A stretch of 32,000 nt of DNA from Acaryochloris thomasi RCC1774 (GCF_003231495.1 NZ_PQWO01000017.1:1-32000), one strand, 5' to 3'; counted from the first letter of the stretch, positions 2,893 to 29,255 are shown. Notes: generated from the sequence alone by a model not told the origin. Made by a program: numbers and translations.

Positions 2893-2902
2893 GCTGAATC
2901 TC

Positions 2903-4106: not shown

Positions 4107-5219
<1,113 letters not shown>

Positions 5220-6219: not shown

Positions 6220-6666
6220 TTAGGCATCGTTACCAAAATATTTAACCATAGGAACTGAGCTATCTAGGTTTGGATCTCCTGCCACCTTATATCCAAGCCG
6301 GGCGTAGAAAGGTAGGGCATTCGGGCTAGCGTCTAGGTTTACTGTAATTTCTCCTTGTGCCCGGATTGCGGACTCTGCATATGCCATAAGTAACGAGCCA
6401 ACACCTGAGTGAGAAGCAGAGGGAGTCACGTAGAGTCCTTTGATTGTTGCGGCCTTGACCTCGATCCAACCCACAACAACCGATTCGCACTCTGCCACCC
6501 AGACACTGTTGTGCTTGATCGCTAATGCAGCGCGATCGGAACTGGCAGAGTTTGCCCAGCGCTCGGCTGCAGCGTGTCCGAAATCATCGGCAAGACTCAT
6601 AATGGCATGCCAACGTATCGCAAGAAGCCTCTGATCATCGCTGGAGATAGCAGACCGAATGTGCAT
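6220..6666 (-). CDS. GNAT-family N-acetyltransferase
   Basis: Acetyl-CoA motif region VTPSASHSGVGSLLMAYAESAIRAQG and C-terminal FYARLGYKV. The track ORF extends to 6747, but those 27 codons lie inside the dispersed repeat, so I prefer the ATG at 6666 (MHIRSAISS). Confidence 0.75.
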   Translation of the reverse strand: MHIRSAISSDDQRLLAIRWHAIMSLADDFGHAAAERWANSASSDRAALAIKHNSVWVAECESVVVGWIEVKAATIKGLYVTPSASHSGVGSLLMAYAESAIRAQGEITVNLDASPNALPFYARLGYKVAGDPNLDSSVPMVKYFGNDA

Positions 6667-6688
6667 TAGAGGGACGTAGAAGCTGTCT

Positions 6689-6921
6689 AAACTATAACTA
6701 TACGGATAGCGGCTGATAACTCCGGTAGGAAGGGTATTATCCGCCAAAAACTAGATAACTCCGCGATCAGAGCATTATCAAGCAGAAGTCGGATAACTCC
6801 GACCCAAGAGGTACTATCCAGTCGTTTACTGTCATCAAGCCACCCTATTTGGAAATCTTGAGATTAATAAGCCCCGCCCTTCAAAGCTTTCAAGACTCCC
6901 TATCCCTATGCTCGTCAGCTC
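6689..6921 (-). repeat. Dispersed repeat family, copy A (longest): three tandem ~38-bp GATAACTCCG-N-TATTATCC hairpin units plus a ~100-bp tail with promoter-like hexamers
   Basis: Positions 6689-6747 align with 11411-11476 and 27147-27209 (core ACGGATAGCGGCTGATAACTCCG). Positions 6789-6921 align at roughly 80% by eye with 27176-27312. Sub-units lie at 6713-6745, 6751-6783 and 6788-6822. The copy ends about 22 nt upstream of the GNAT ATG. Confidence 0.8.
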
Positions 6922-6970
6922 GTAGCAGATTTCAATAAGGCAAGCCTTACCAATGGTGGTGGCCTACGTC

Positions 6971-8074: not shown

Positions 8075-8078
8075 ACCC

Positions 8079-8110
8079 TTGACCTTAACATCAATGTCAA
8101 GGTTTACCCT
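8079..8110 (+). promoter_or_regulatory. MerR-type operator-promoter of coaT: TTGACC -35, 20-bp spacer with a dyad, TACCCT -10
   Basis: The sequence is cTTGACCTTAACATCAATGTCAAGGTTTACCCT. The dyad ACCTTnACAT-nn-ATGTnAAGGT occupies 8082-8103. The over-long spacer (8085-8104) is the hallmark of MerR-activated promoters, and the layout resembles the CueR/ZntR boxes of E. coli copA/zntA. Confidence 0.75.
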
Positions 8111-8140
8111 GAGGAAGCTGTTAATGCTAAGGCTGCCCTG

Positions 8141-10111
8141 ATGGAGAATGTGACACAACTGAGGTTTCCACAACAGGGCCGGATTCCATCTTGGTTTAAA
8201 ACCTATCCTGCCGTCGCAACGGCTGCGCTGTGTGCCCTGCTAACGCTGCTGGGCTGGTTGGCGTTAGTGGCCGGGCAGGTGGGCGGGGCCGTCTGGATCT
8301 TGTTGATTGCCTACGGCATTGGGGGTTATGAAAGCGCTCGTGAAGGGTTAACGACCCTGTGGCAAGAACGGGAATTAGATGTCGATCTATTGATGATTGT
8401 GGCGGCTCTGGGGGCGGCCACCTTGGGGCTATGGCAGCGGGAGTATTATTTGCTGGTGGATGGGGCAATTTTGATCTTAATCTTTGCCATCAGCGGAGCC
8501 TTAGAAGATATTGCCCTCCAGCGCACCGAGCGCAATATTCGGAGCCTGATGCAGCTCACTCCAGATACCGCTTGGCGGTGGCAAGGCGGTCAAACGCAGC
8601 GGATCAAAACGCAGCAGTTGCAGGTGGGCGATCGCATCCTGATCAAACCGGGCGAACTCATTCCCACGGACGGTGTGGTCCAGACTGGCAGCAGTACGGT
8701 GAATCAGGCGACGTTAACCGGCGAGTCGATTCCAGTGGAGAAAGGCATTGGGGATGAAGTCTTCGGGGGCACCCTCAACGGCAGTGGAGCGATCACGGTC
8801 GAGCTGCACCAGCCCCCAGAGAGCAGCCTGATTCAGCGAGTGATCCGCTTAGTGGAGCAGGCCAAAACCTCGCAGCCGCGATCTCAATTATTTTTAGAAA
8901 AATTCGAGCGGGGCTATGCCCGCCTGATTGTCGGCGTCGGGTTGCTCCTGGCAATAATGCCGCCCCTCTTGCTGGCCTGGAGTTGGGAAACCACTATCTA
9001 CCGAGCCTTGATTTTTCTGGTGGTGGCCTCCCCCTGCGCCCTAATGGCGGCGATTATGCCCACCTTACTCTCTGGGATTGCTCAGGGGGCACGACAGGGG
9101 ATTCTATTTAAAGATGGTGCTCAGTTGGAAACGATGGGGCGAATTGAGGCGATCGCCTTCGATAAAACCGGCACCCTAACCACGGGCGTTCTGCAGGTCA
9201 GCGATCTAGTGCCTGCTGCAGGCGTCGCCGCGAATCATGTGCTACAGGTGGCGGCTTCCCTAGAGGCTTATTCCGAGCATCCCATTGCGGATGCGATTGT
9301 GGCTGAGGCCCAACAGCAGGGACTGTCGCTTTTGTCAGCCAATGCTGTTCAAGCTGCGATAGGTCAGGGCATTGTCGGTCATCTAGCCGGAACCCTAACC
9401 CGGATCGGTAAACCTCAGTTTGTCACGGCAGATCTGTCCGAAACGGCAGACTCTCATCTGCTTCAGGCCAGCCATCAGCTAGAAGCCACCGGCAAAACCG
9501 TGATCTGGGTCACGGAGCAGCAGCACTTGATCGGACTTTTGGCCGTCGCCGATCAGATACGTCCCCAAGCCGCTCAAGTCTTAGCTATCCTCAAGCAACT
9601 GGGAATTGCGACGGTGATTCTGACGGGGGATAATGCCGCCACCGCTCAGACCCTTGCCCAACTTGTGGCGGTAGAAGCCGTCTACGCCGATTTACTACCG
9701 GAGGACAAAGTAGATGCCATTGAAAAACTCCAGCAGCAGTACGGCACCGTGGCGATGGTGGGGGATGGCATTAACGATGCTCCGGCTCTGGCTCAAGCCT
9801 CGGTGGGCATTGCGATGGGGACGACGGGCAGTGATGTAGCTTTAGAGACGGCGGATGTGGTGTTGATGGGCGATCGTTTAGAGAAACTCACGCAGGCGAT
9901 TGGTATTGGAGCCAAGTCTCAACGGATTGTCAAACAGAATATTGCTCTAGCGCTGACCTCTATTGCCCTGTTGATGGTAGCTAACTTCTTTGGTGAACTG
10001 ACCTTGCCTGCTGGGGTGCTGGGGCACGAGGGGGCAACGTTGTTGGTAACGCTCAATGGCTTGCGATTACTGAGAACCGATGCCGCTATCGCCTCTATAT
10101 CTTACTTGTAG
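8141..10111 (+). CDS. coaT: P1B-4-type heavy-metal (cobalt) exporting ATPase, CoaT-like
   Basis: SPC motif in a TM helix (LVVASPCALMAA), DKTGTLT phosphorylation site, GDGINDAPAL, and HEGATLLVTLNGLRLL in the last TM helix. No N-terminal HMA domain. Start placed at the ATG at 8141 (MENVTQL), downstream of the MerR-type promoter; the track ORF start at 7871 is inside coaR. Confidence 0.85.
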   Translation: MENVTQLRFPQQGRIPSWFKTYPAVATAALCALLTLLGWLALVAGQVGGAVWILLIAYGIGGYESAREGLTTLWQERELDVDLLMIVAALGAATLGLWQREYYLLVDGAILILIFAISGALEDIALQRTERNIRSLMQLTPDTAWRWQGGQTQRIKTQQLQVGDRILIKPGELIPTDGVVQTGSSTVNQATLTGESIPVEKGIGDEVFGGTLNGSGAITVELHQPPESSLIQRVIRLVEQAKTSQPRSQLFLEKFERGYARLIVGVGLLLAIMPPLLLAWSWETTIYRALIFLVVASPCALMAAIMPTLLSGIAQGARQGILFKDGAQLETMGRIEAIAFDKTGTLTTGVLQVSDLVPAAGVAANHVLQVAASLEAYSEHPIADAIVAEAQQQGLSLLSANAVQAAIGQGIVGHLAGTLTRIGKPQFVTADLSETADSHLLQASHQLEATGKTVIWVTEQQHLIGLLAVADQIRPQAAQVLAILKQLGIATVILTGDNAATAQTLAQLVAVEAVYADLLPEDKVDAIEKLQQQYGTVAMVGDGINDAPALAQASVGIAMGTTGSDVALETADVVLMGDRLEKLTQAIGIGAKSQRIVKQNIALALTSIALLMVANFFGELTLPAGVLGHEGATLLVTLNGLRLLRTDAAIASISYL

Positions 10112-11501: not shown

Positions 11502-13163
11502 TCATGTACGCTCAATCCAGTACCCTGCCCATGCCAATACCAGGGAAAAAACCATCGCAGCCACAGCCTGTCGCCCCATCAAAATTAGTGCAAACCGGAG
11601 TGACTGTTCGCGGGCAATGGTGAGGGCCGTGACGAGGCAAGGCAACAATACACCGGCCAGATAGACCCCTGTAAGAATTTGTAGCGGTGTGAGGACCGAG
11701 AGGGTATCAACCTCAGCAAAGAGTAGCAGGCCATCTTTACGAATAGAGGCCAGGATTATGGGTAAAGCAGCATCCGACGGGAGATGAAAGATGCCCATCA
11801 GGGGATGAAGAATGGTTGCCAAAGCAGTCAGGAGATTCCACTCGTCTAAAACGGATGCGATTAAGGTAATGGCGACAAAAATGGGAATCGCAGTCGTAAA
11901 AAACTGGTAGAGGGTTCCTTGGGCTTCTCGCCAGATCGCGACTAGGCGTGGCCGTTCTAAAAAGGTACGGTGTTCAATCATCAGGCTGTTCTGAAGAGAG
12001 CGAGCCGACTTGGGCGCAATCAAGCGTGTGTAGACTAAGGTTGTTGAAGTCAGATAAACCAGGTAAGGAATCGCCAAGTAGGGCATGTTGGCTGCACTAA
12101 ACACCCCCAGCGTGGCCCCCAATTGATAGGAACAGGCTGAGCCAAAGGCGATCGCCGAGATGCAAGTTTTGCGAGCGCAGCTAGAACAGGCACGGGTACT
12201 GATCACCGCTGGGACGTTACAGCCAAACCCCATCATGACTCGCACCAGATCCCGGCCAGATAGGCCAAAGGGGCGCAACAGCGGATGCAGAGCGACTGTG
12301 ATCCGTTCGACCAAGCCACTGGCTTTGTAAGTGCCCAGAAATAGGGCATACAGAATGACCGTTGGCACAGCCCAGACAAACAGGAGCGGCCCCATCGTCA
12401 GCAAGCCGTAGCGTCCGATCAGCATGGCTTCAGGTAGAGGGAGTAAGCCCGTCAGAGCGTCGATGAGGGGCTTGATCAGCCATTGCACTAGGGGATCGGC
12501 GATCGCAGCAAAGCGATTGGCAAACCCAACCGCCAGCATGGCAGGCAAAAAAAGGAGCAAAATCGCAACGAGCCAACCGACGCGCGGATGCTCCAAAATG
12601 GTGGGCTGGGGTTCAATCCGCCATCCGGCAGGGTGCGGTTGCCATTGGTAAGGAAAGGCCGACGGTGCAGAGAGACTTGCGACTATTTCATGACGCTGCG
12701 TGCGGGTCAAATTTCTCGCGTTCACCGGCATAAACTCTAAATGAGAAGCCTGCTTCCAGTCACGAACAACCGAATGGGTGAACCCAGAACTCGCAATTTT
12801 ATCCCAAAACGTGATCACAACAATGCCGAGCTTCCCTGCAACCAAAGGCCATAAATCCGCCAGATCTTCATCAACATGCGTTGCTTTAACCACCAGCAGC
12901 ACAACGTCATGGATTTGTAATTGCGCCAGGGCCGCTTGCGTTGTGGCTCGATCAGAGCGGTACAAAATACCGGGCGTATCCACAAAGGTCATCCCATCTC
13001 TGACATAGGTTTCACAGGCAATAGTAGAACCGCGAAAGTTGCTGCTATAGGGCGAACATCCGGTCAGGGCGGCAATCAGTTGAGATTTGCCCGTATTCTC
13101 TTTACCAATAACGACGATAGAGCGCTGGACTGGAGGGGTAAGCAGGGGCATGGCAGGCAGCAA
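11502..13163 (-). CDS. FeoB-family GTPase-coupled metal transporter (N-terminal G domain plus polytopic gate/nucleoside-recognition membrane domain)
   Basis: G1 motif VVIGKENTGKS, G3 motif FVDTPGI, followed by about 10 hydrophobic segments. It is the third gene behind the Zur box at 14816. No FeoA-like ORF is adjacent. Confidence 0.75.
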   Translation of the reverse strand: MLPAMPLLTPPVQRSIVVIGKENTGKSQLIAALTGCSPYSSNFRGSTIACETYVRDGMTFVDTPGILYRSDRATTQAALAQLQIHDVVLLVVKATHVDEDLADLWPLVAGKLGIVVITFWDKIASSGFTHSVVRDWKQASHLEFMPVNARNLTRTQRHEIVASLSAPSAFPYQWQPHPAGWRIEPQPTILEHPRVGWLVAILLLFLPAMLAVGFANRFAAIADPLVQWLIKPLIDALTGLLPLPEAMLIGRYGLLTMGPLLFVWAVPTVILYALFLGTYKASGLVERITVALHPLLRPFGLSGRDLVRVMMGFGCNVPAVISTRACSSCARKTCISAIAFGSACSYQLGATLGVFSAANMPYLAIPYLVYLTSTTLVYTRLIAPKSARSLQNSLMIEHRTFLERPRLVAIWREAQGTLYQFFTTAIPIFVAITLIASVLDEWNLLTALATILHPLMGIFHLPSDAALPIILASIRKDGLLLFAEVDTLSVLTPLQILTGVYLAGVLLPCLVTALTIAREQSLRFALILMGRQAVAAMVFSLVLAWAGYWIERT

Positions 13164-13198
13164 GAGAACAGGGCAATCTACAATTTTTCAGCAGGGCC

Positions 13199-14320
13199 TT
13201 AGCAGATACAGTCGTTGTCACAGCACGATAGGTCATCTAGAAACAGTCCTGACTGGCGGTAGGTTTCTAATGGCGCAGGATCAATGCCTAAACGGAGGGC
13301 GATCGCATGGGCCACCACCGCAAACCGCTGCCGGAACTTATAGATAAAGCAAAAAATCAGACCAGGATGACGCACTGAAGGGCCAACCACAAACAGACCA
13401 GGGGTGCGGGTAGACTCATCTTGCTCGTTCAAGACGGCATGATTCTCCGACCAGTGGAACAGCGGGGCAATTTGCTTCAAGCTGGTCTCAAAACCCGTAC
13501 AGAGAATGGGGGGATGCACCGTCAGCCATTTCTGGTATTCGCTGTAGACGGCATAGCCCCCTGGCATTTTTTTGACTTCGCCAATGGAGACATTGCTGAG
13601 CAGTTCGAGACGGCCCGTTTGATGGGCCAACCTCAGGCGCTGCAGCGTATAGGGTGACAATGAAACACTCGGATCCGTCTCCTGGCTACCCCACACCCCA
13701 GTCCGATCTAAAACCCTGACTTTTTTCCCTAAGGCGACTAAATGGGTCGCGGCATCCATACCACTTTCATAGCCGCCGATGATCGTAAATTCATCCCCTG
13801 GCAAATTGGACCAAGAGCGAATCTGGGAATTGTGAATGCAGTGGTCTGCGCCCAAAAATGGATTTAACTTTGGGTATTGGAATTCTCCAGCGGCCCAGAT
13901 CACAAACTGGGTTGTGAAGTCCCCGCCAGAAGTTTTTAGAATGAACCCGCGACACTGAGAGAGGGGTTCAATTGCTAAAACATCTGTTTCTGTCTGCACA
14001 GGCAACTGGAAGTGATCCACCACTGTTTGTAGGTAGAGCGCATACTGCTGGCCATTGATATGCTCTCGTCGAAAGGCGAGCGCTGGAGATGTTTTCAGGG
14101 TGATGGCATTGAGGTCGAGTAGGCCAAAACCATGACTCGGAAACGAGGGGGTAATCAAGTTCATCTCCACTGGCCAGCGGCTAAAGGAGGCTCCCACCTG
14201 CAGCCGATCCACCAGGATAAAGTTGTCCAGGCCCAGCTCCCGCAACGCAACAGCGCAACCCACCCCAGCAGGTCCAGCACCGACGATCACGACATCATAG
14301 AAAGAAGTTGATTGAGTCAT
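13199..14320 (-). CDS. FAD/NAD(P)-binding oxidoreductase (pyridine-nucleotide-disulfide / flavin monooxygenase-like)
   Basis: N-terminal dinucleotide fold YDVVIVGAGPAGVGCAVAL and a second Rossmann-like motif FTIIGGYESGMDAATHL. It lies between the DUF1636-like gene and the FeoB-like gene, with gaps of 20 and 35 nt. Confidence 0.7.
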   Translation of the reverse strand: MTQSTSFYDVVIVGAGPAGVGCAVALRELGLDNFILVDRLQVGASFSRWPVEMNLITPSFPSHGFGLLDLNAITLKTSPALAFRREHINGQQYALYLQTVVDHFQLPVQTETDVLAIEPLSQCRGFILKTSGGDFTTQFVIWAAGEFQYPKLNPFLGADHCIHNSQIRSWSNLPGDEFTIIGGYESGMDAATHLVALGKKVRVLDRTGVWGSQETDPSVSLSPYTLQRLRLAHQTGRLELLSNVSIGEVKKMPGGYAVYSEYQKWLTVHPPILCTGFETSLKQIAPLFHWSENHAVLNEQDESTRTPGLFVVGPSVRHPGLIFCFIYKFRQRFAVVAHAIALRLGIDPAPLETYRQSGLFLDDLSCCDNDCIC

Positions 14321-14340
14321 GGAATATTGTTCGGATACGA

Positions 14341-14733
14341 TTACAGGCTAGGACAGGGAATCCTTGCTAAAATCCCCTTCTGCATTGACTCTGGACGACT
14401 TTGACGGGGAACGATACCATCTGAGCTGGAGTGATATTGGTGGGCCAGTTGCAAAACGGCTGCCGCACTGTGCAGAGGCAGCATGTCACCAAACATTAAG
14501 GTGGTTTTCCCTGCTGCTGCTAGGGCAATGGTGCAGGAGCGATCGCAAGCACTTAGATAGTTCACCGCTTCGATCTTGAACTCAAGGGGGAGGGGCCACT
14601 GCTCCTGAAGCCGCAGTAAATTGCTGAGCAGGTGATAGCCACCGCGTTGTCCTACGTAGTCTCGTTGGGTACGCGAGAAGACACAGGACCGACAGACGAA
14701 TAGAGCGTGTTGAGCCATAATGGGCACTGCCAT
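14341..14733 (-). CDS. DUF1636-like predicted metal-binding protein (Cys pairs CRSC and CDRSC)
   Basis: HALFVCRSCVFS ... YLSACDRSCTIAL ... TLMFGDM matches my recollection of the DUF1636 family often found beside cobW genes. It is the first gene behind the Zur box at 14816. The start could be M1 or M6. Confidence 0.6.
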   Translation of the reverse strand: MAVPIMAQHALFVCRSCVFSRTQRDYVGQRGGYHLLSNLLRLQEQWPLPLEFKIEAVNYLSACDRSCTIALAAAGKTTLMFGDMLPLHSAAAVLQLAHQYHSSSDGIVPRQSRPESMQKGILARIPCPSL

Positions 14734-14815
14734 ACTGAAACGCTATGGGTGATCGCTAGCGAGATTATCCACCCGGAATGGATTGAACCGTTTGTACAAA
14801 ATCCTATACTTAAAA

Positions 14816-14832
14816 ATGATAATCATTCTCAT
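14816..14832. promoter_or_regulatory. Zur box (ATGATAATCATTCTCAT) upstream of the DUF1636-flavoprotein-FeoB-like operon
   Basis: Same palindrome family as 5142, 21396 and 27691. It lies 83 nt upstream of the ATG at 14733. Confidence 0.7.
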
Positions 14833-18282: not shown

Positions 18283-18924
18283 TCAAGACCTAGCGGCCCT
18301 ATGGCCTTCGTGCAGTGTAGCAATACAGGCAGAATCATCTGCACAGTGATAGCCCGCCAATAAGGCTCGATTGACTTCCACTACGTGATGAGAAAACTGA
18401 TGATCGACGGTCTTGGCATCGGGTAGCCGATCAGCGTCAGCTTGATGGATAATGACAGCCCCTGATCCGACATATTTCCCGGTTGGGATCTCCACGTCTT
18501 GGATCAGCGCATGCATCATCACAACACAATGATCACCCACCTTGGCATTAAACACTGTTGATCGAAAGCCAATGAAGCAGTCATTACCAATATAGGCAGG
18601 TCCGTGAATCAAGGCCATGTGGGTAATGCAGGTATTTTCGCCAATCCAGACCGAATAGGGCTGATGATCATCGCCTCTGACCCGCCCCTGTTCTAAGCCA
18701 TGAATAACCACACCATCCTGGATATTGGTGTTCGCACCGATATAAAAGGGCATGCCCTCGTCTGCTCGAATGGAAGTGCCGGGTGCAATCAATACCTGTT
18801 GACCCAAGCGAACATCTCCGATCAAACTTGACGAGGGATGCACGTAAGCTGACGGATCCATTTGGGGTTGGTCTAGCCCTCGATCCCAAGGTGTCGGGGG
18901 CGAAGGCTGCTGGCGTAGGGGCAT
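18283..18924 (-). CDS. Stand-alone gamma-class carbonic anhydrase-like protein (left-handed beta-helix), resembling the N-terminal domain of CcmM
   Basis: Hexapeptide-repeat sequence with candidate metal-ligand histidines (VVIHG at H75; THMALIHG at H102/H107). The C-terminal helix carries Cys194 and Cys200 ([10 protein letters not shown]). No RbcS-like repeats follow. It is the last gene of the thrS-hisI string. Confidence 0.75.
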
Positions 18925-18959: not shown

Positions 18960-19445
18960 TCAAAGCTGTGTCGGATTGGGGGTATCCCCATAGATCAGTT
19001 GAGGGTCAAAGGTTTTTGCGGTTTCTGTAAAGGTCAATGTAATGGGATAGTTTTCCCTCACCGCTTCCGTTCCCAAAGGAATTTGACGATAAAAACAAGA
19101 TCGATACCCCACATGGCAACTGGCTCCAGAGTCTGCAACAGTCACCCGCATCCAAAGGCAGTCTTGATCATCATCAATCAGCAATTGCTGGACGTATTGG
19201 ATCAAGCCACTGGTCGCGCCTTTGTGCCAGAGGGTCTGACGACTGCGGCTGTAGTAATGGGCTTCTCCGGTTTCGATAGTTTTGACCAAGGCGGCCTGAT
19301 TCATATAGGCATGCATCAATAGTTCGCCTGTCTGGGCATCGGTTGTCACAACAGGAATTAAGCCCGCTTGATTAAATTTGGGCGCGAGGGACGTGCCTTC
19401 TTCGACAGCTTCTACACAGGTGCGATCCGCAAATAGAGTCGTCAT
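18960..19445 (-). CDS. hisI: Phosphoribosyl-AMP cyclohydrolase, monofunctional HisI paralog
   Basis: [48 protein letters not shown]...DCLWMRV....[10 protein letters not shown] is the canonical HisI pattern including the Cys/His metal-ligand positions. There is no HisE domain. Confidence 0.85.
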
Positions 19446-19505: not shown

Positions 19506-21356
19506 CTAAATCTTTTGTTTAGCGTCAATGGCTGACTGCATTTTTTCGTACAGGTCACAGAGCGTTAACGGTCCCTGCTCTCCTGCCTGTCGGGTGCGAA
19601 TACTGAGGGTCTGGTTTTCCACTTCTCGCTTGCCCACGACCGCCACAACAGGAATTTTTTCTAGGGCAGCCAAACGAATTTGTTTCCCTAGACGCTCGCC
19701 GCTCCTATCGACCTCAGCTCGCCAGCCTTTCTGCGTAAGCTGGTTTAAGACTTCAAAGGCATACTCTTGCTGGGCATCACTGACGGTTAGCAATCGAATC
19801 TGCGTCGGCGCTAACCACAGCGGGAAATCCCCGGCATAGTTCTCGATCAAGATGCCAAAGAACCGCTCTAGCGATCCAAAAATGGCTCGATGGATCATGA
19901 TCGGGCGCTGCCGTGATCCGTCTGCGGCCACGTATTCCATCTCGAAGCGCTCTGGCAAGTTGAAATCGACTTGAATGGTGGAACATTGCCACAGCCGCCC
20001 GATCGCATCTCGAATCTTCAGATCGATTTTGGGACCATAGAACGCGCCGCCGCCCTCATCCGTGAGGTAATCCCAACCCTTACGCTCCAGGGCTGTGCTC
20101 AATGCCTGGGTGGCTAAGTCCCAAATGTCATCGCTGCCGACGGATTTGTCAGGCCGGGTTGAGAGGTTGATTTCATAATCGCTAAAGCCAAAGTCAGACA
20201 GCACCTTTTCGGTGAGATTCAGGACGGCCAAAATCTCATCCGCCACCTGATCAGGCAGACAAAAGACGTGGGCGTCATCTTGAGTAAAGCCCCTGACCCG
20301 CATCAGTCCATGCAGTGTCCCGGAGCGTTCGTAACGATAGACCGTTCCCAGCTCGGCCCACCGTAGGGGAAACTCTCGATAGGAGTGGAGTTCATGCTGG
20401 TAGGTGAGCACATGAAAGGGGCAGTTCATCGGCTTGATCTGATAATCCTGAGTTTCCACCGCCATTTGATCAAACATGCTGTCGCGGTAGAACTCAAAAT
20501 GGCCGGACGTTTTCCAGAGATCAAGATTGGCGATGTGGGGCGTATAGAGTAGCTCATACCCTGCTGCTAAATGTGCCTGCCGCCAGTAGTCTTCGATGAT
20601 GTGGCGAATCCTGGCCCCGCGAGGATGCCAAAAGACCAGCCCCCCTCCAGCAGCCTCTTCAATACTGAACAGCTTCAGTGTCTTTCCCAAAAGACGGTGA
20701 TCTCGGCGCTGAGCCTCTTCTTTTTGGTGTAGGTAGGCTTTTAACTGCTTTGGAGTTTCCCAGGCGGTTCCATAGATCCGCTGCAGTTGAGCTTGGGTTT
20801 CATCGCCACGCCAATAAGCTCCAGCGACACTTTCGAGCATGAATGCCTTTGAATGCAGCTCGCCTGTACTGTTGAGATGGGGACCCGAGCACAGATCCCA
20901 CCAAAATTCATCAGGGGCCACTGACAACGGAGCAATCAGCGAGGCTTCCGCCTCTGGATGCTGTGTCCGGCCTGTGTCAGGACTGCCAATGAAATAGCGG
21001 GTAATCGCTTCCTCTGCAGGAATCTGGGCCAATATTTCTAATTTGTAGGGTTCTTGCAACTGTTCTAGTTCAGCCGTCATCTGATCGCGATCCACTTGTT
21101 CGCGGATGATGGGCAAATTGGCCTTGATGATGCGCCGCATCTGAGTTGCGATCGCATCCAGATCCTCTGGCGTAAAAGCCTGGGCACGGTCAAAGTCATA
21201 GTAGAAACCTGTCTCAGTCGTTGGACCAATCGTCACCTTTGTCTCAGGAAACAGATGCTGCACCGCCATAGCCATCACATGAGCGCAGGTGTGGCGAAGT
21301 CGCTGTAGCTGTTCGGTGGAATTAGGCGCTGACAGCGTACGAGAAACGGTAGACAT
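19506..21356 (-). CDS. thrS: Threonyl-tRNA synthetase paralog lacking the N-terminal TGS domain
   Basis: Begins 20 aa before the editing-domain RHTCAH motif (E. coli has about 68 aa before RHSCAH). The catalytic Zn-ligand contexts are retained (PMNCPFH, FTQDDAHVFC, IMIHRAIFGSLERF). The divergent folE starts only 143 nt upstream, which is too little room for a TGS domain. Confidence 0.9.
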   Translation of the reverse strand: MSTVSRTLSAPNSTEQLQRLRHTCAHVMAMAVQHLFPETKVTIGPTTETGFYYDFDRAQAFTPEDLDAIATQMRRIIKANLPIIREQVDRDQMTAELEQLQEPYKLEILAQIPAEEAITRYFIGSPDTGRTQHPEAEASLIAPLSVAPDEFWWDLCSGPHLNSTGELHSKAFMLESVAGAYWRGDETQAQLQRIYGTAWETPKQLKAYLHQKEEAQRRDHRLLGKTLKLFSIEEAAGGGLVFWHPRGARIRHIIEDYWRQAHLAAGYELLYTPHIANLDLWKTSGHFEFYRDSMFDQMAVETQDYQIKPMNCPFHVLTYQHELHSYREFPLRWAELGTVYRYERSGTLHGLMRVRGFTQDDAHVFCLPDQVADEILAVLNLTEKVLSDFGFSDYEINLSTRPDKSVGSDDIWDLATQALSTALERKGWDYLTDEGGGAFYGPKIDLKIRDAIGRLWQCSTIQVDFNLPERFEMEYVAADGSRQRPIMIHRAIFGSLERFFGILIENYAGDFPLWLAPTQIRLLTVSDAQQEYAFEVLNQLTQKGWRAEVDRSGERLGKQIRLAALEKIPVVAVVGKREVENQTLSIRTRQAGEQGPLTLCDLYEKMQSAIDAKQKI

Positions 21357-21395: not shown

Positions 21396-21412
21396 ATGAT
21401 AATGATTATCAT
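21396..21412. promoter_or_regulatory. Zur box (ATGATAATGATTATCAT) in the divergent thrS / folE intergenic region
   Basis: The best palindrome of the five. It lies 40 nt from the thrS ATG (21356) and 88 nt from the folE ATG (21500), so it is positioned to control both divergent operons. Confidence 0.8.
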
Positions 21413-21499: not shown

Positions 21500-22135
21500 A
21501 TGACCCTGTCTTCGATGCCCTCGTTTGTGCCTGATACTATTGCCACTGAGGCTAAACCCATCGTTTCGGAAGCACAAATGCAGGACGCCGTCCGCACATT
21601 GTTGCTGGGCATGGGGGAAGATCCTGATCGAGAGGGGCTGCGAGATACCCCCAAGCGAGTCGTCAAATCTTTAAAATTTCTGTCCTCCGGGTATCAAATG
21701 TCCCTGGATGAGTTGCTCAATGGGGCCGTCTTTTCCGAGAACTTAGACGAGATGGTCTTAGTGCGTGATATTGACCTGTTTAGTTCCTGCGAACATCACA
21801 TTCTGCCGATTTTGGGTAAAGCCCATGTTGCCTATATTCCCAACGGCAAAGTTATTGGCCTCTCTAAAATTGCCCGCATTTGTGAGATGTACGCTCGGCG
21901 GCTACAGGTGCAAGAACGGTTGACCGCCCAGATTGCCGATGCCTTGCAGGGACTGCTCAAGCCCCAAGGTGTGGCCGTCGTTGTCGAAGCCACCCATATG
22001 TGCATGGTGATGCGGGGGGTACAAAAACCTGGCTCTTGGACCTCGACGAGCGCCATGCGGGGCGCGTTTGCCGGTGATGCCCGTACCCGCCAAGAGTTTT
22101 TCAATCTGGTTGCTCATTCCGCTGCAATTCGTTAA
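21500..22135 (+). CDS. folE: GTP cyclohydrolase I, type 1 (FolE; Zn-ligand motifs retained)
   Basis: [20 protein letters not shown] and [11 protein letters not shown] motifs are present. The gene is preceded by an AGGAG RBS. Confidence 0.9.
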
Positions 22136-22162: not shown

Positions 22163-23143
22163 ATGCTCCCCCTCCCTGGACAGTTTGAAAAACGCCTGCC
22201 CGTCACGATGATCACGGGATTTTTGGGCAGCGGTAAAACCACCCTGCTCAATCATCTGTTGGGGCATCTTGGCGGTCGGCGCGTGGCTGTGTTTGTCAAC
22301 GAATTTGGGGCCATTGATATTGATAGCCAAATTCTAGTGGCCGTTGATGAAGACATTGTTTCCCTCAAGAACGGCTGCGTATGCTGTCAGGTCAAGGAGG
22401 ACTTTCTAAGGGCGCTGAGGCGGGTGTTAGCCTACGACCACATGCAAAAAGCTGCAGGCAAGCAGGGCTTAGAGGCGATTCTCCTAGAAACATCGGGTGT
22501 GGCAGACCCCTATCCCATCATGCTCACCTTTAGGGTCAGTGAGCTGTGGAGCCTGACTCGCCTCGATGCGGTGCTAACGGTGGTAGATGCAGAAACGTTT
22601 ACCGCTGAGCACTTCCAGAGTCAGACTGCCCTCCGTCAGATCCAGTACGGAGATATTATTTTACTCAACAAGGCCGATCTCGTAGGGGACAAACAGCTCA
22701 GTCATTTAGAGGCTGAAATTAAGCGCCTTAAGCCCCAAGCAAGGGTCCTACCCATGACCTATGGTCAAGTCCCGTTATCGAGTGTTCTCGATGTGGCACT
22801 CTTCTCAGGTGACAGAGAAGCAAGTGCTGCGCCAGCCACCCTGCATATACAAGACGATGGCTTTGTTGCCGTGCCCTTTGAAAGCGATCGCCCCTTCGTG
22901 CTCAAAAAATTTCAGCAGTTTTTGGACTACCAGTTACCTGCAGATGTCTTTCGGGCCAAGGGCGTTCTTTGGTTTACAGAAAGCCCCCACAGGCATCTGT
23001 TTCAACTGAGCGGTAAGCGGAGCCAGTTTCAGGATGAATCTTGGTTTCAGCCGCCCAAAAATCAACTGGTGTGTATCGGTCGCAACTTAGATTCAGAACA
23101 ATTACAGCAACAGCTCCAGCAGTGTTTAGCCTTGACCCATTGA
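22163..23143 (+). CDS. COG0523-family (CobW/ZigA/YeiR-like) metallochaperone GTPase
   Basis: P-loop ITGFLGSGKTTLLNHLL, metal-binding GCVCCQV (CxCC), ETSGVADP, LLNKADL and a CobW C-terminal domain (FRAKGVLWF...QLVCIG). Confidence 0.85.
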   Translation: MLPLPGQFEKRLPVTMITGFLGSGKTTLLNHLLGHLGGRRVAVFVNEFGAIDIDSQILVAVDEDIVSLKNGCVCCQVKEDFLRALRRVLAYDHMQKAAGKQGLEAILLETSGVADPYPIMLTFRVSELWSLTRLDAVLTVVDAETFTAEHFQSQTALRQIQYGDIILLNKADLVGDKQLSHLEAEIKRLKPQARVLPMTYGQVPLSSVLDVALFSGDREASAAPATLHIQDDGFVAVPFESDRPFVLKKFQQFLDYQLPADVFRAKGVLWFTESPHRHLFQLSGKRSQFQDESWFQPPKNQLVCIGRNLDSEQLQQQLQQCLALTH

Positions 23144-23147
23144 TTTT

Positions 23148-23924
23148 ATGAGTACTCCCTCTTTTCTCGCCGTTTCTGGTCCCCCTGGCAGTGGTAAAAC
23201 CACCTGGATTAAACAATTTCTCAAAGATGAAACGGCTCCCTTGTTTTATCTCTATCCGGGGTTAGGCAACGTTTCCGTAGATCTGATGCGGATTGGCTAT
23301 ACCTTTCCCTGGGTGCAGGTGATTCCTGAGAGCCAAATACAGCAGGCACTCACCGCACTGCCAGACCAGGCGGTGGTTTACCTAGAGCTGGGCTTTCACC
23401 TGAATTTAGACTCACCATTTCTCAGCGCTTTGCCCTGCCATCAAGTTGCAGTGCTCCCCCCTGATCTCCAAGACTCTGAATGGCATCAATGGGCCGATGA
23501 AATTTGTCTGGGCAACGATATTGCGACTCCTGATGTAGCCAAGCCGCCTGAGCTATGGCATACGCCTCTACAGGGACAGGTCTTTGATCCCCCTAGCTTA
23601 GAGGTCGTGTTGACTGAAATAGCAGGGGGAGCCTACGGTAAAGTCCATCGCTTAAAAGGCATTTTTGAGATGCCCGATGGACAAGCCCTTAGCATCGATT
23701 TTGTAGCAGGGCTAGAGGGCATCGAATATACCGAACTGAATATACCTCGTTGGCTAGAGGGACGCCCCCATCGCTACAGCGGCGTTGAGGTGATCGGCGA
23801 CAACCTAGAGCAAGAGATCATTGCTCAGACCCTATTGGATAGCAGCTTGGCAGATGAGACGCTCTCCTATTATCAACAGCAATACAAGACCTTAGAGCCA
23901 GTCGAGGAGGCTGTTTCTGTATGA
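23148..23924 (+). CDS. Degenerate COG0523-like P-loop protein lacking the CxCC metal motif
   Basis: P-loop VSGPPGSGKTTWIKQFL and a CobW_C-like end (VHRLKGIFEMPDGQALSIDFV), but no CxCC and no NKxD-like motif. It starts 4 nt after the preceding stop and overlaps the next gene by ATGA. Confidence 0.6.
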   Translation: MSTPSFLAVSGPPGSGKTTWIKQFLKDETAPLFYLYPGLGNVSVDLMRIGYTFPWVQVIPESQIQQALTALPDQAVVYLELGFHLNLDSPFLSALPCHQVAVLPPDLQDSEWHQWADEICLGNDIATPDVAKPPELWHTPLQGQVFDPPSLEVVLTEIAGGAYGKVHRLKGIFEMPDGQALSIDFVAGLEGIEYTELNIPRWLEGRPHRYSGVEVIGDNLEQEIIAQTLLDSSLADETLSYYQQQYKTLEPVEEAVSV

Positions 23925-24733
23925 AACTCGCAGTGATTTCCTGTATTCATGGCAACGTTGAGGCACTCAATGCCGTGCTCTCTGATATCGATCGCCAGCA
24001 AACCGATCAGATTTACTGTCTCGGCGATCTGGTGGGCTACGGTCCCCATCCCAACGCAGTGGTGGAGATGATTCGTTCCCTCGATATTCCCACCTGTCAG
24101 GGCTGCTGGGACGAAGATATTGTCGATGGCCTCAATGCCTGTGACTGTAGTTATCCTTCACAGTTAGCAGAAAAGCGAGGGAAGCAAGCCCATGAATGGA
24201 CGGACCGAGTCGTTCATCCAGAGGTGCGGGAGTATTTAGCAAGTCTGCCGATCACATTGCAATCTGAAAATCTGGCCTTTGTTCACGGTAGCCCCAACAG
24301 TCAGCATGAATATCTACTCCCCAGCATGGACGGATTTGCCGCCCTAGAACGGGTCTTATCCACCGGGGCAGATGTCTTGTTCTGCGGTCATACCCATGTC
24401 CCCTACGTGCGTGATCTAGCCGATGGCAAACTTTCGATGCGGGTTCATCAACCTGGAAAAGAAGAAACACAGCAGCAGTCCACGGTTTCCCTGAAGCGGA
24501 TTATCAATGCCGGATCGGTGGGAGAGCCTCGCCACGGACGACCCAATGCGACCTATGTTCTCTATGACACAGAGACGGCACAGGTCACACTCCGAGAAGT
24601 GCCCTACGACTATACAAAAACCTGTTTAGCCATTATTGAGCAGGGCTTACCGCCTATTTTTGCATGGCGATTGGCGCGGGGGATGGAGTTTGCAGAACGG
24701 GCTGATGATCCTAGTCATGTGTGTCAGCGGTAG
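23921..24733 (+). CDS. Metallophosphoesterase-family protein with Cys substitutions in metal motifs and a CxxC...CxC insert
   Basis: Motif I reads ISCIHGN (Cys where DxH has Asp). Motif II is LGDLVGYGP, motif IV FVHGSP and motif V CGHTHVP. The motif III region reads CQGCWDEDIVDGLNACDCSYP. Confidence 0.75.
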   Translation: MKLAVISCIHGNVEALNAVLSDIDRQQTDQIYCLGDLVGYGPHPNAVVEMIRSLDIPTCQGCWDEDIVDGLNACDCSYPSQLAEKRGKQAHEWTDRVVHPEVREYLASLPITLQSENLAFVHGSPNSQHEYLLPSMDGFAALERVLSTGADVLFCGHTHVPYVRDLADGKLSMRVHQPGKEETQQQSTVSLKRIINAGSVGEPRHGRPNATYVLYDTETAQVTLREVPYDYTKTCLAIIEQGLPPIFAWRLARGMEFAERADDPSHVCQR

Positions 24734-24758
24734 CTGGCCCCAATTAAGGAGGTGAAGA

Positions 24759-25496
24759 ATGGAACAGTGGGCTATCTTAAGCGGGATAGAAGGTAATCTC
24801 GATGCATATGAGGCGGTGCTGGCCGATATCCGGCGACAGCGCTATCCGGTAACGGACCTCTATGTCTTAGGAGATATTGTGGGACTTAAGGGCGACAACC
24901 GGGCTGTGATGCGGCGGCTTCAGTCTCCGCGCGCCGGGGAATTAGAACCCCAGGTTTGTATCGGCTGGTGGGAAGAGCAGTGTTTTAATTTGTACGGGTT
25001 GGGCGGATTGCCCGATGCGCCAGAGTTAATAGAGCAAGAGGGGGCCGACGCTGTGCAGCACCTCTGGGAGTCAGTATCACGGGAGGCGGTGGACTGGATG
25101 CGATCGCTTCACTTTGGGTTTCACGAACTCGACTGTCTCTTGATTCACGGCAGCACGGTGGGCTACGCCGATGAACTCACGCCGGAGACGCCCGCGATTC
25201 AATTGTGCGATCGCCTGATTCGCGCTGATGCCAACAATCTATTCTGTGGACGTTCAGGCTTAGCCTTTGAATGCTGGATCGAACCAAGTGATCTATGCTC
25301 CACCGTCATGACCTTAGATGGAACACAGGCTCCTCAAACGCAAAATCGAACGCCCCGACGCATTGTCGGCGTTGGCAGCGTGGGGCGCACATTGGGACAA
25401 GCCACCTATACACTTTATAATCCTGCCAATAATCACATTACCTTCAAGACCGTGAAATATAGTAAAGCCAAGGGCTTTGCCCTGCAAAGCGCATAG
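24759..25496 (+). CDS. Metallophosphoesterase-like paralog with degenerate catalytic motifs (probable pseudo-enzyme)
   Basis: Collinear with the upstream gene, but motif I is LSGIEGN, motif V is CGRSG and the motif III region is CIGWWEEQC. GDIVG and LIHGS are retained. A strong RBS (AAGGAGG) precedes the ATG. Confidence 0.65.
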   Translation: MEQWAILSGIEGNLDAYEAVLADIRRQRYPVTDLYVLGDIVGLKGDNRAVMRRLQSPRAGELEPQVCIGWWEEQCFNLYGLGGLPDAPELIEQEGADAVQHLWESVSREAVDWMRSLHFGFHELDCLLIHGSTVGYADELTPETPAIQLCDRLIRADANNLFCGRSGLAFECWIEPSDLCSTVMTLDGTQAPQTQNRTPRRIVGVGSVGRTLGQATYTLYNPANNHITFKTVKYSKAKGFALQSA

Positions 25497-25713: not shown

Positions 25714-26343
25714 TCATGGATTACGCTTGAGTATCCAAAATGGCGGAGCATCAGTTGTAAGTTGTTGCTTACGCGCGATTTCAAACCCATTTTTCTGGTA
25801 AAACCGCACGGCTAACTCTGTCGCCGTGACGACAGAACAAGGAAGCCCCTCATCACTTGCTCGACACAAAATAGGCCGTAGTAATTGAGTCCCTATCCCT
25901 TGTCCTTGACTCTCTGGTTGCACAACCATCAGCCCTAAATCCCAATAGGGAGAATTGCCCATATCTTGTTGCTGAACTCTTTCGATTGCAGACAACATAT
26001 TTAGCCATCGTGCCAATCGATTCCAACCTACCTTCACTGGCAACTTATACAACTGAACCTGAAGCGCCATCTTTAATTGTTGGAGTAGATTGGTAGAGAA
26101 TTCTCCTGATGGCGGCAACCAAGCCGCTACTCCTTGAAAGTCTGATGTCGTGTAGACATGCCCATATTGAATGCAGTAAACCATTAATTGACTTGTCAGC
26201 CAACTTAAAGCCTGAAATCGCAGTTCTGGATCATCCGGTGTTAAGTAGCTAAATACCGGATCAGCGATCAATGCATTCGCGGCAATTTCACTGGCATTCT
26301 CAATCTGCGATGAATGTAACTGGAGCACATCAGAACGATGCAT
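25714..26343 (-). CDS. GNAT-family N-acetyltransferase
   Basis: QPESQGQGIGTQLLRPILCRASDEGLPC...AVRFYQKNGFE is the typical acetyl-CoA binding motif A/B region. Confidence 0.75.
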   Translation of the reverse strand: MHRSDVLQLHSSQIENASEIAANALIADPVFSYLTPDDPELRFQALSWLTSQLMVYCIQYGHVYTTSDFQGVAAWLPPSGEFSTNLLQQLKMALQVQLYKLPVKVGWNRLARWLNMLSAIERVQQQDMGNSPYWDLGLMVVQPESQGQGIGTQLLRPILCRASDEGLPCSVVTATELAVRFYQKNGFEIARKQQLTTDAPPFWILKRNP

Positions 26344-26653
26344 AGTTTGATGCCCTAACTAAAGCTTCCTAAAAAAGCAAGAACCGTTGATATACAGTCA
26401 TTACAGCCGATAAGGTTGACAGGGAGTGCACGGTCAAGTTGTGCATCCTCGACGTTATAGCCGATTTAGCTTTGTACGTGGAAATCCAAAGCTCTCAAAA
26501 AAAGAGATTTTGAGAACGAGTTTACAGAGGGTTCAGGGTCTATTTAGCTGGCTCAGACTTTTTCAGCAAGCCCTAACGTCCAAAATCACCGGGTCGCGAC
26601 AAGTGATTCTCCATTTGAATATACCCGGCTTCGCGATCCGGTACATTTTTTTG

Positions 26654-27139
26654 TTATACGTCGGTCTGAGTTGTGATTCGAGTGATTTGTCGACCAAGAA
26701 CTTTGCGGTTCGCGTGAATTTTCACGGGCAGGTCAGTGTTATAAGAATACAGTTCGTCGATGACGCCAGCCATGTGTTTTTTCGTCTCGACATCCTTTGA
26801 TTGAAGTGTTGATGCTATGGCACGATCGTATTCTTGTCGAAGCGATTTCATTTTACGATCGTCATGTCTACACGTAGGACAGTTTTTTGCATATGAATCG
26901 ACGTAGAAACCGAGTTGTTCGTACCATCGTTTTTGCTCAGCGGCGGTGAAGCAAAACTTCTCGGAGCAGCGAGAACATTTGAATGTGGCATCGACATACC
27001 AATGGCGTGGGCACACCGAGTAGTTTTGGCGAGACACATCAGCACGTACTGCAGAATCGTGATTGAGGTGCAAGCATTCCCAGAAGAAATGTCGGGGCAT
27101 GTTTACCGAACTGGTTTCGCCAAAGGAGTCCATGTGCAT
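26654..27139 (-). CDS. Zinc-ribbon domain protein (zf-trcl-like, four-Cys)
   Basis: CPRHWYVDATFKCSRCSEKFCFTAAEQKRWYEQLGFYVDSYAKNCPTCRH contains two Cys pairs flanking the conserved F-F-EQ-Y-GF pattern. The segment is AT-richer. Repeat copy C starts 8 nt upstream of the ATG. Confidence 0.65.
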   Translation of the reverse strand: MHMDSFGETSSVNMPRHFFWECLHLNHDSAVRADVSRQNYSVCPRHWYVDATFKCSRCSEKFCFTAAEQKRWYEQLGFYVDSYAKNCPTCRHDDRKMKSLRQEYDRAIASTLQSKDVETKKHMAGVIDELYSYNTDLPVKIHANRKVLGRQITRITTQTDV

Positions 27140-27678: not shown

Positions 27679-27707
27679 TTGATATAGTGAATGATAATCA
27701 TTATCAT
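27679..27707 (+). promoter_or_regulatory. Promoter (TTGATA-N17-TATCAT) overlapped by a Zur box (ATGATAATCATTATCAT, 27691-27707) upstream of sufE-like/COG0523
   Basis: The -35-like TTGATA is at 27679-27684, followed by a 17-nt spacer and a -10-like TATCAT at 27702-27707. The palindrome covers the spacer and the -10, which is the classical repressor geometry. It lies 30 nt upstream of the ATG at 27737. Confidence 0.8.
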
Positions 27708-27736
27708 TTTAACGATACACCTGCACTCCAGGCGCT

Positions 27737-28180
27737 ATGTCTATGGTGACGACCCCTCTCCCCCCCGCCCTTGCCAAAATTGTGAAGCGCTTCGAGCAGA
27801 CCTCTGATCCCAAGCAGCGATACGAATATCTGCTCTGGTTCGCCAAGCGATTGCCCCCCTTCCCAGAAGCTGATAAACAGCCCTGCAATAAGGTCGTGGG
27901 CTGCGTGTCCCAGGTCTATCTCACTGCCACTTCGACCGACGGCGGGGTTCACTTTCAAGGGGACTCCGACGCTCAAATCACCAAAGGGTTGGTGGGGCTG
28001 CTGATTGAAGGTCTCAATGGATTGCCGCCCGAACAAATTGTGCAGCTCACCCCAAACTTTATTGAACAGACCGGCCTCAACGTTAGCCTTACCCCGTCAC
28101 GCAGCAACGGGTTCTACAACATTTTCACGACTCTGCAGCGATTAGCGCTGCAGCTCATGCCCCCAGAGCAAAATCATTAA
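27737..28180 (+). CDS. sufE: SufE-like sulfur-acceptor domain protein
   Basis: FEQTSDPKQRYEYLLWFAKRLP...KVVGCVSQVYLTA...FQGDSDAQITKGLVGLLIEGLNG is the SufE/Fe-S metabolism-associated domain pattern, including the conserved Cys in GCVSQV. Confidence 0.8.
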   Translation: MSMVTTPLPPALAKIVKRFEQTSDPKQRYEYLLWFAKRLPPFPEADKQPCNKVVGCVSQVYLTATSTDGGVHFQGDSDAQITKGLVGLLIEGLNGLPPEQIVQLTPNFIEQTGLNVSLTPSRSNGFYNIFTTLQRLALQLMPPEQNH

Positions 28181-28199
28181 CCGCAGACGGAGTCAACCC

Positions 28200-29255
<1,056 letters not shown>

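Follow-up and report, generated by a model that had tools for sequence, protein, structure and literature searches.

We identified a conserved gene cassette in a 32,000-nucleotide stretch of the Acaryochloris thomasi RCC1774 genome (GCF_003231495.1, NZ_PQWO01000017.1:1-32000; hereafter the window). In this DNA folE, encoding GTP cyclohydrolase I, is followed on the same strand by a gene for a canonical COG0523 GTPase and by three further genes that we call g3, g4 and g5. The g3 product is a P-loop nucleoside triphosphatase (NTPase) that appears to derive from COG0523 proteins but carries no CxCC motif, g4 encodes a Cys-type protein with the metallophosphoesterase (MPE) fold, and g5 encodes a g4 paralog depleted of metal ligands. 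An initial annotation had described positions 22163 to 25496 as a folE-linked module of four genes under zinc control. The open reading frames (ORFs), junctions and motifs that it listed are all present there in the sequence and its translations; the unit conserved across Cyanobacteria, however, is the three genes g3-g4-g5.

The canonical COG0523 gene ends with a TGA at 23141-23143, and four nucleotides (tttt) separate it from the ATG of g3 at 23148. The g3 and g4 frames share an ATGA overlap at 23921-23924, with GAGGAGG just 5' of it (23904-23910). Because database searches returned hundreds of close homologs for each of g3, g4 and g5, we consider them to be real genes rather than chance ORFs.

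Eighty loci, picked by similarity to g4, were fetched from species-representative genomes and annotated with phmmer. Of the 79 cyanobacterial loci with room for it, 78 have g3 immediately 5' of g4, and the ATGA overlap between them is preserved in 67 of the 79. g5 follows g4 in 70 of 74 loci, at a median gap of 37 nucleotides, and the g3-g4-g5 triad was found again in 58 more metagenome loci.

All four genes proposed in the initial annotation are contiguous and closely spaced in the window and in its nearest relatives (L010-L012). This arrangement would fit a four-gene unit in which the canonical COG0523 protein loads the MPE, with g3 an inactive pseudo-chaperone and g5 an inactive pseudo-enzyme. 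However, just 8 of 75 loci have the canonical COG0523 gene immediately 5' of g3. Its association is instead with folE, a same-strand COG0523 gene being present within 350 nucleotides of folE in 14 of 21 cases. Many cyanobacterial cassettes have no COG0523 gene within 5 kb. In addition, g3 retains the catalytic residues of an NTPase (see below) and is translationally coupled to g4 in most loci. We therefore reduce the module to a three-gene cassette and regard a four-gene unit as highly unlikely; the predicted co-occurrence holds for g3-g4-g5 and fails for the canonical COG0523 gene, which is a variable neighbour.

The canonical COG0523 protein matches the cobW model at 172 bits (cut-off 20.7) and CobW_C at 77.6 bits (cut-off 22), and its translation contains Walker A, CxCC, ExxG and NKxD (Table 1). 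FolE contains SSCEHH and HMCM, which we take, from E. coli FolE, to supply its Cys/His/Cys zinc ligands. ZagA and FolE of B. subtilis are a precedent for a COG0523 chaperone paired with FolE, and by analogy the canonical COG0523 protein probably serves FolE and stands outside the core cassette. In this lineage, g3-g4-g5 was joined onto the folE-COG0523 pair.

A few loci depart from the usual order. g5 was not found 3' of g4 in two Hormoscilla loci (L045 and L052), where a COG0523 gene directly follows g4, nor in L064, where a thrS fragment lies between g4 and COG0523. In L040 a thrS gene is placed between g4 and g5. The cassette is plasmid-borne in Trichormus variabilis ATCC 29413 (plasmid A, L090), Dolichospermum and Picosynechococcus, and L090 carries a run on one strand (35-7618) of thrS-DUF1636-COG0523-methyltransferase-hisI-hypothetical-g3-g4-g5. 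Since the cassette resides on plasmids in several Cyanobacteria, the entire zinc island may be mobile.

Table 1. Genes and sites of the window
Feature	Position	Strand or location	Remarks
DUF1636 - flavoprotein (Pyr_redox_3) - FeoB-like GTPase transporter operon	11502..14831	-	1-mismatch Zur box 14817-14831
Hexapeptide-repeat gene	18283-18924	-	Directly 3' of hisI in thrS operon; Hexapep match
hisI	18960-19445	-	After thrS; NCBIfam hisI 7e-44
thrS	19506..21356	-	Divergent from folE, same Zur box; NCBIfam thrS 4e-210
Zur-box-like 7-1-7 palindrome TGATAATGATTATCA	21397..21411	thrS/folE divergent intergenic region	0 mismatches
folE, GTP cyclohydrolase I type IA	21500..22135	+	First gene of operon; PF01227 6e-75, NCBIfam FolE
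Canonical COG0523 GTPase	22163..23143	+	GFLGSGKTT, GCVCCQ, ETSG, NKAD; cobW 9e-51, CobW_C 7e-22
g3, putative COG0523-derived P-loop NTPase without CxCC or NKxD	23148..23924	+	Core cassette gene 1
g4, Cys-type metallophosphoesterase-fold protein	23921..24733	+	Core cassette gene 2; Metallophos_2 5e-23
Shine-Dalgarno AAGGAGG for g5	24746..24752	+	6 nt 5' of ATG 24759
g5, ligand-depleted g4 paralog	24759..25496	+	Core cassette gene 3

Probable Zur-type control of the cassette

The window contains 11 Zur-box matches with three or fewer mismatches where 1.2 are expected, a number reached in none of 100 shuffled sequences. The box at 21397-21411, a predicted site, is a 7-1-7 palindrome of the type documented as the Zur operator of Anabaena (PMC3323870), and overlaps promoter-like sites on both strands at their -10-like TATCAT hexamers. 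It heads two units, thrS-hisI and, on the opposite strand, the run of genes from folE to g5. The box at 5143 heads a Mg-type hemB followed by znuA, znuC and znuB, that at 14817 heads the DUF1636, flavoprotein and FeoB-like transporter genes, and a perfect box at 27692 heads sufE and a His-rich COG0523 gene. Most of the window (1236-29255) is one zinc-starvation island of four units, each behind a strong Zur-type box. The window thereby shares with the known cyanobacterial Zur regulon (the Anabaena all4725 operon and the Synechococcus 7002 pAQ7 hemB-II/folE-II cluster) both the 7-1-7 operator and the companion genes hemB, folE, thrS, COG0523 and znuABC.

Boxes of this type are common at other cassettes. 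With two or fewer mismatches allowed, one is present at the head of g3 or of a contiguous chain of zinc genes in 45 of 76 loci, where approximately 0.06 would be expected per 500-bp window. Cassettes that stand alone are boxed as well (for example Nodularia L002, L023, L035, L036, L040, L063 and L073). Zinc-type neighbours are absent in 11 of the 40 cassette loci with at least 5 kb on either side.

The experimental evidence comes from Synechococcus PCC 7002, in which G0131 and G0132 are derepressed in a zur mutant and induced by TPEN (PMC4628125). By synteny with PCC 7117, G0131 is a truncated g3 of 165 amino acids; G0132 is divergent from it, with a perfect box between the two. Two points count against zinc control of the cassette. 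By a simple rule, 31 of the 76 loci have no box at the immediate operon head, several of these being boxed further upstream, and in PCC 7002 the genes G0129 and G0130 are neither derepressed nor induced by TPEN (PMC4628125). We do not accept the second as a refutation, and attribute the published finding that the phosphoesterase is not induced to decay of the cassette in that strain. The pAQ7 plasmid locus (L091, 4989-6760) lacks g4, and the truncated g3 is followed by ORFs that are unrelated or remnants. The strain studied therefore has just a remnant of the cassette, unlike the window, and the sister strains PCC 7117 and PCC 73109 have it intact.

We conclude that zinc control of the cassette is well supported by the sequence comparisons, as the initial annotation had proposed, and indirectly by the experiments in PCC 7002. 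In A. thomasi, transcription of g3-g4-g5 most likely starts at the folE promoter, with its Zur box, under zinc shortage.

Proteins encoded by the cassette

The translation of g4 contains the motifs ISCIHGN, GDLVGYGP, CQGCWDED, NACDCSYPS, VHGSP and GHTH. It has the profile and fold of the MPE superfamily, scoring 82.3 bits against Metallophos_2 (cut-off 27) and matching the solved structure 3rqz with E = 3e-31, and neither g4 nor g5 matches a specific NCBIfam model. A database protein of A. thomasi RCC1774 is 100% identical to g4. The best 120 database matches, from Cyanobacteria that are only very distantly related, share 73-87% identity with g4; clustered at 50%, the family forms a single full-length cluster.

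In metallophosphoesterases the Asp of motif I and the Asn of motif III are metal ligands, and the His of motif III is the general acid. Multiple alignments place C8-I-H10 of g4 at motif I, in place of D-x-H, and G61-C62-W63-D64 at motif III, where GCWD aligns with GN[HY]D and the canonical G-N-H-[DE] is not found; both variants are invariant in the Cys-type clade. Motif II (G35-D36), motif IV (H122) and motif V (G156-H157-T158-H159) are likewise invariant, and five of the seven ligands of the binuclear site are retained (His10, Asp36, His122, His157 and His159), as is a GSVGxPR segment. A pair of cysteines, C74-x-C76, lies within a seven-residue insert after motif III, and the C-terminus reads H266-x-C268-x-R in Cyanobacteria and C-x-C in other bacteria. 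In our table of ligands D8C, N62C, H63W and the C-terminal Cys tail always co-occur. The initial annotation had noted the Asp to Cys change in motif I and a Cys-rich motif III, and had placed cysteines at binuclear-site ligands. The alignments agree, putting C8 and C62 in ligand columns, and add that the motif III Asn is itself a Cys. A pairwise HMMER alignment of g4 and 3rqz set motif III two residues off register; we preferred the multiple alignments, which are consistent.

These substitutions suggest that each metal position has exchanged one of its ligands (Asp8 or Asn62) for a thiolate. We know of no precedent for the motif III change from Asn to Cys, nor have we seen thiolates at both metal positions described for this superfamily. 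The first substitution does have a precedent in the RNA lariat debranching enzyme Dbr1, whose motif I is Cys-x-His instead of Asp-x-His and which needs this Cys for catalysis (PMC5113202); catalysis is therefore possible with such a motif I. In contrast to g4, Dbr1 keeps the Asn-His of motif III, has no CxC insert, is not among the close fold matches of g4, and is a eukaryotic enzyme with an RNA substrate and no link to zinc regulation. As a different kind of site, the five Cys residues of g4 could conceivably form a Fe-S-like or NiFe-like cluster.

The AlphaFold2 (AF2) model of g4 has a predicted local distance difference test score (pLDDT) of 91.5. Its closest solved structures in Foldseek are SapH/Spr1479, an asymmetric Ap4A hydrolase, 3rqz, 1nnw and 2gju (E of 4e-21 to 2e-14, query-normalised template modelling score approximately 0.70-0.74), and Vps29 is also among the fold matches. 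3rqz resembles g4 in its GDxVGYGP-type motif II, which reads GNIVGLFP in 1nnw and 2gju. In 3rqz, however, the Asp/Asn/His ligands are canonical and the CxC insert is missing, motif I is degenerate in 1nnw and 2gju, and none of the four has a known zinc-regulon context.

Among characterised proteins, the closest relative of g4 is a thiol-dependent oxyanion reductase, not a hydrolase: Car1, the arsenate reductase of Rufibacter tibetensis, whose activity is reportedly coupled to thioredoxin. Car1 and its homologs in ars operons (such as Paraclostridium Orf1) are approximately 38-42% identical to g4 and have the same fold and the same insert, which 3rqz-like proteins lack in the alignment. C74-D-C76 of g4 aligns with C74-G-C76 of the ars-operon homologs, in the same columns and with the same numbering, and both groups have an aromatic residue at position 63, where the general-acid His would be. 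In contrast, Asp8 and Asn62 are canonical in Car1-type proteins, and there is no C-terminal Cys tail. Cys74 and Cys76 of Car1 are essential, according to PMC12124457. Because of this kinship, we consider redox chemistry beside hydrolysis, and a substrate screen confined to phosphoesters, as had been suggested, could miss the real activity of g4.

The genes for CxC-bearing relatives with canonical ligands are found in ars or pst operons, whereas g4 loci have Zur-box-like sites and zinc-regulon neighbours. The arrangements include ArsD-ArsA-rhodanese-ArsR-Acr3 followed by the MPE, MIP-ArsR followed by the MPE, ArsR, MPE and ArsM in Paraclostridium, and ArsR-DUF6428-MPE-Acr3(-ArsC) in Hymenobacteraceae. 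MPEs of this type, with the CGC sequence, are encoded in L172 and L173-L178. In L172 (2185-2946) the gene belongs to a phosphate-transport operon, PstA-PstB, MPE, PhoU; we have not seen a CGC-type MPE described between pstB and phoU. The annotation of the few Car1-type loci examined shows no g3- or g5-like gene, although no profile search for g3 or g5 was made there.

Among 139 relatives, the residues at positions 8, 62 and 63 are D/N/H without CxC in 92, D/N/Y with CxC in 24 and C/C/W with CxC in 10, with four of g5 type and nine others. A midpoint-rooted neighbour-joining tree was uninformative. In an outgroup-rooted tree, the Cys-type clade and g5 fall inside the group with CxC and an aromatic residue 63 in 41 of 50 bootstraps. 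This nesting, together with the shared insert and aromatic residue, would be expected if the cassette detoxified arsenate or another oxyanion, as Car1 does, and lay near zinc genes by chance. However, zinc neighbours and Zur-box-like sites are recurrent among approximately 140 cyanobacterial loci (scanned with zinc-regulon seeds and no ars seeds), and the additional Cys substitutions of g4 are absent from Car1-type proteins. We consider a detoxification role hardly probable at all.

The company that g4 keeps in the island raises a different possibility, namely that g4/g5 substitutes for a housekeeping Zn/Mn phosphoesterase during zinc starvation, through tighter metal binding by thiolates or through a metal-free Cys nucleophile. 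Such a swap would parallel the Mg-type hemB, the second thrS and hisI, paralogs within the four Zur-boxed units, and SapH, an Ap4A hydrolase/phosphodiesterase, is among the fold neighbours of g4. We identified no housekeeping counterpart, although whole genomes were not searched; the nearest characterised relative is a reductase, and a simple exchange of isozymes leaves two extra dedicated genes unexplained. Replacement is in our view distinctly unlikely, and we prefer a reading, developed below, in which g4 is a dimetal enzyme served by g3 and g5.

g5 has no Pfam or NCBIfam match, and its homology rests on comparison with g4, to which it is 27% identical (E = 1e-24). As had been noted from the sequence, it is a paralog of g4 in which motifs I and V are lost. 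Five of the seven ligands are replaced (G, E, W, R and G), leaving the motif II Asp and the motif IV His, and the corresponding motifs read SGIEGN (G8/E10), WWE and GRSG. The length of the CxC insert is kept and its cysteines are not. Nevertheless, members of the family are 65-88% identical and share the invariant segments WAILSGIEGN, CxGWWEEQC, HGS and FCGRSG. In the same loci, which were chosen by g4 similarity, the median identity to the window proteins is 82% for g4, 80% for FolE, 74% for ThrRS, 71-75% for g5, 57-62% for g3 and 48-55% for COG0523. Because g5 is conserved about as well as ThrRS, the sequences indicate that it is not decaying but strongly constrained, which would suit a regulatory subunit or an obligatory partner. 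With its remodelled pocket invariant, the label of pseudo-enzyme is too strong.

g3 is, on the evidence of its sequence and model, a derivative of COG0523. Its family comprises 315 proteins, with all named matches cyanobacterial. The protein has 258 amino acids, shorter than COG0523 proteins, and fails the cobW model; CobW_C is its sole Pfam match, at a borderline 22.4 bits (cut-off 22), and no specific NCBIfam model matches. Pairwise BLAST with COG0523 aligned the P-loop only. The AF2 model (pLDDT 91.9) is more informative. Searched against the PDB with Foldseek, it gave significant matches only to YjiA (1nij, 4ixm and 4ixn; E of 1e-8 to 1e-7, full length), the next match having E = 0.02. A profile search of PDB sequences also placed the YjiA N-terminus first, weakly (E = 0.02), and hhalign matched the g3 C-terminus to the end of CobW_C with E = 4e-5. 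Both the two-domain YjiA-like fold and a C-terminal domain of CobW_C type are thus present.

Walker A is intact in g3 (GPPGSGKT), with G11, G14, G16, K17 and T18 of GxxGxGKT invariant in the family. In the Walker B-type ExxG, E80 is invariant and G82 is at least 90% conserved. In contrast to COG0523/G3E GTPases (YjiA, ZigA, ZagA, CobW and the nitrile hydratase activator), g3 lacks both CxCC and NKxD. No Cys occurs between Walker A and ExxG, and none is conserved in an alignment of 45 family members; the stretch equivalent to the CxCC region reads RIGYxFPWVQV. The NKxD position is occupied by VAVLPPxL, with P104 nearly invariant, as judged by motif order, since no alignment of g3 with COG0523 covers this region. 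The CxCC motif is said to be conserved in every COG0523 member (PMC2770081).

From the YjiA fold, the CobW_C-like end and the intact Walker A and ExxG, we infer that g3 descends from COG0523 proteins and has probably kept the ability to bind and hydrolyse a nucleotide. The initial description of a COG0523-like protein that has lost CxCC and kept the P-loop and a CobW_C-like end is borne out by the alignment, Pfam, Foldseek and hhalign. The term pseudo-chaperone, however, says too much for a protein with Walker A and the ExxG glutamate in place. Like COG0523/G3E GTPases, g3 is encoded beside a presumed metalloprotein client under zinc-starvation control, and for a possible parallel with the UreG-urease, HypB-hydrogenase and nitrile hydratase activator systems, in which the NTPase delivers metal to the neighbouring client or gates its insertion, g3-g4 offers gene order and ATGA coupling.

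Cys-type proteins outside Cyanobacteria and candidate functions

A metagenome scan seeded with Cys-type proteins, supplemented by direct look-ups, yielded 16 distinct non-cyanobacterial lineages, none of which has g3 or g5. Instead, a FeoB-like protein of approximately 550 amino acids (MMR_HSR1 G-domain and Gate) is encoded within 2 kb in 8 of the approximately 11-12 lineages with informative flanks, mostly directly adjacent to the Cys-type MPE gene or with overlapping frames. COG0523, ZnuA or Fur-family genes are also nearby in several lineages. The Zur-boxed FeoB-like protein of the window (553 amino acids) is 36-38% identical over its full length to the transporters of L004 and L005 (E approximately 1e-95). 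In the lineages examined, the Cys-type protein is therefore usually encoded beside a P-loop NTPase, and often close to genes of metal-starvation type. In Cyanobacteria this NTPase is g3, a soluble protein, whereas that of the other bacteria is tethered to the membrane. The Zur-boxed operon of DUF1636, flavoprotein and FeoB-like genes and, in Picosynechococcus, a gene for an FAD/NAD(P)-binding protein that is divergent from g3 and has a Zur box in common with it hint at a partnership in redox and import.

In L004 (804-6341), genes for an S8 peptidase, six ORFs of 79-90 amino acids and an ABC transporter lie 5' of the FeoB-like, Cys-type MPE and Crp genes; these upstream genes look like a peptide-maturation and export cluster.

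The proximity of an importer could mean that g4 and g5 together accept or buffer metal in the cytosol, receiving zinc or a replacement for it from the FeoB-like importer under Zur control and handing it on to clients, with g3 driving release at the expense of NTP. The frequent adjacency and overlap outside Cyanobacteria would fit such a metal hand-off, as would the nearby COG0523, ZnuA and Fur-family genes, the Zur box that the window's FeoB-like gene has of its own and the replacement of the general-acid His by Trp; Vps29 shows that the MPE fold can serve as a non-catalytic scaffold. However, g4 keeps four His, the bridging Asp, GSVGxPR and the Car1-type CxC and is conserved like FolE, which is more typical of a catalytic site, and a high-affinity zinc sink seems counterproductive under starvation unless release is driven. 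We judge a pure hand-off role rather unlikely.

In the reading that we prefer, and to which we give somewhat less than an even chance on the present comparisons, g4 would be the working subunit, with a thiolate-rich dimetal centre favouring zinc and/or iron over manganese. It would bind a tetrahedral oxyanion or phosphoester and act on this substrate with the aid of Cys74 and Cys76. g5 would be its obligatory non-catalytic partner, and g3 a dedicated factor for assembly or metal insertion, driven by NTP. In bacteria other than Cyanobacteria, the neighbouring FeoB-like importer may fill the place of g3 with its G-domain. The canonical COG0523 protein encoded upstream of the cassette would serve FolE.

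Several considerations weigh against this dimetal-enzyme mechanism. Trp in place of the general acid, and the two thiolates, could just as well reflect a loss of hydrolysis. The AF2 model of g4 is least confident at the CxC loop (71-80) and from approximately residue 255 to the C-terminus, including the Cys tail. g3 has no recognisable metal-binding motif, so a metal-insertion role for it is argued solely from ancestry and position. The fine branching of the tree is weak, with strict monophyly of the Cys-type proteins in 15 of 50 bootstraps and g5 as the exclusive sister of cyanobacterial g4 in 4 of 50, and an origin of g5 by duplication of g4 is consequently only suggested.

A broader idea is that the Cys-type protein and a P-loop NTPase (g3 or the FeoB-like G-domain) form an unrecognised zinc-starvation module present in more than one phylum, in which the former phosphoesterase pocket, remade with two thiolates, a redox-capable CxC pair and a C-terminal Cys tail, performs thiol-redox or metal-transfer chemistry, coupling metal import to allocation, rather than hydrolysis. 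We put this forward as speculation, no likelier than the metal hand-off; if true, it would be a new route to acquire or redistribute zinc or a substitute metal.

Most members of Zur regulons are importers, COG0523 chaperones or zinc-sparing paralogs, and few of the clients that the chaperones serve have been identified. We found no paper characterising g3, g4 or g5 in the literature searched. The kinds of component are familiar (the Zur regulon, a G3E NTPase with its client, the MPE fold), but their combination, a CxCC-less COG0523 derivative, a double-thiolate site with a CxC pair, a degenerate paralog and a FeoB-like neighbour, is not described there. The cassette is a very strongly conserved member of the cyanobacterial zinc-starvation response, and in it a putative chaperone-derived NTPase is joined to one defined candidate client. 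With just three proteins, it is a tractable system in which to ask how G3E-type NTPases may serve a client. It also provides a candidate for a new metal centre, and the FeoB-like protein that recurs beside Cys-type MPEs is a lead to an importer family possibly linked to zinc. Because marine and freshwater Cyanobacteria are limited by the availability of zinc, the physiology of the cassette could matter ecologically.

Other genes of the window

The hemB gene behind the 5143 box (4107-5126, minus strand) encodes the motif DVALDPY...GHDG, which we take to mark the Mg-type, zinc-independent form; a Zur-regulated zinc-sparing paralog would fit. At 6971-10111, a MerR-CbiC fusion gene (CoaR-like) is divergent from a P-type ATPase gene. 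As listed, the two ORFs overlap, and one of them has probably been called from a start codon too far upstream; the two presumably form a CoaR/CoaT-type cobalt-efflux pair within the zinc island. The hexapeptide-repeat protein of the thrS operon is possibly gamma-carbonic-anhydrase-like and may be another zinc-related paralog. Between two Zur units, and convergent to g5, lie genes for a GNAT acetyltransferase and a Cys-rich treble-clef (zf_Tbcl) protein (25714-27139, minus strand). The unit at 27692-29255 comprises sufE and a second COG0523 gene. The product of the latter shares 47% identity with the first COG0523 protein and contains a His-rich insert (HDHDHDHHGHGHHGHDHHHH).

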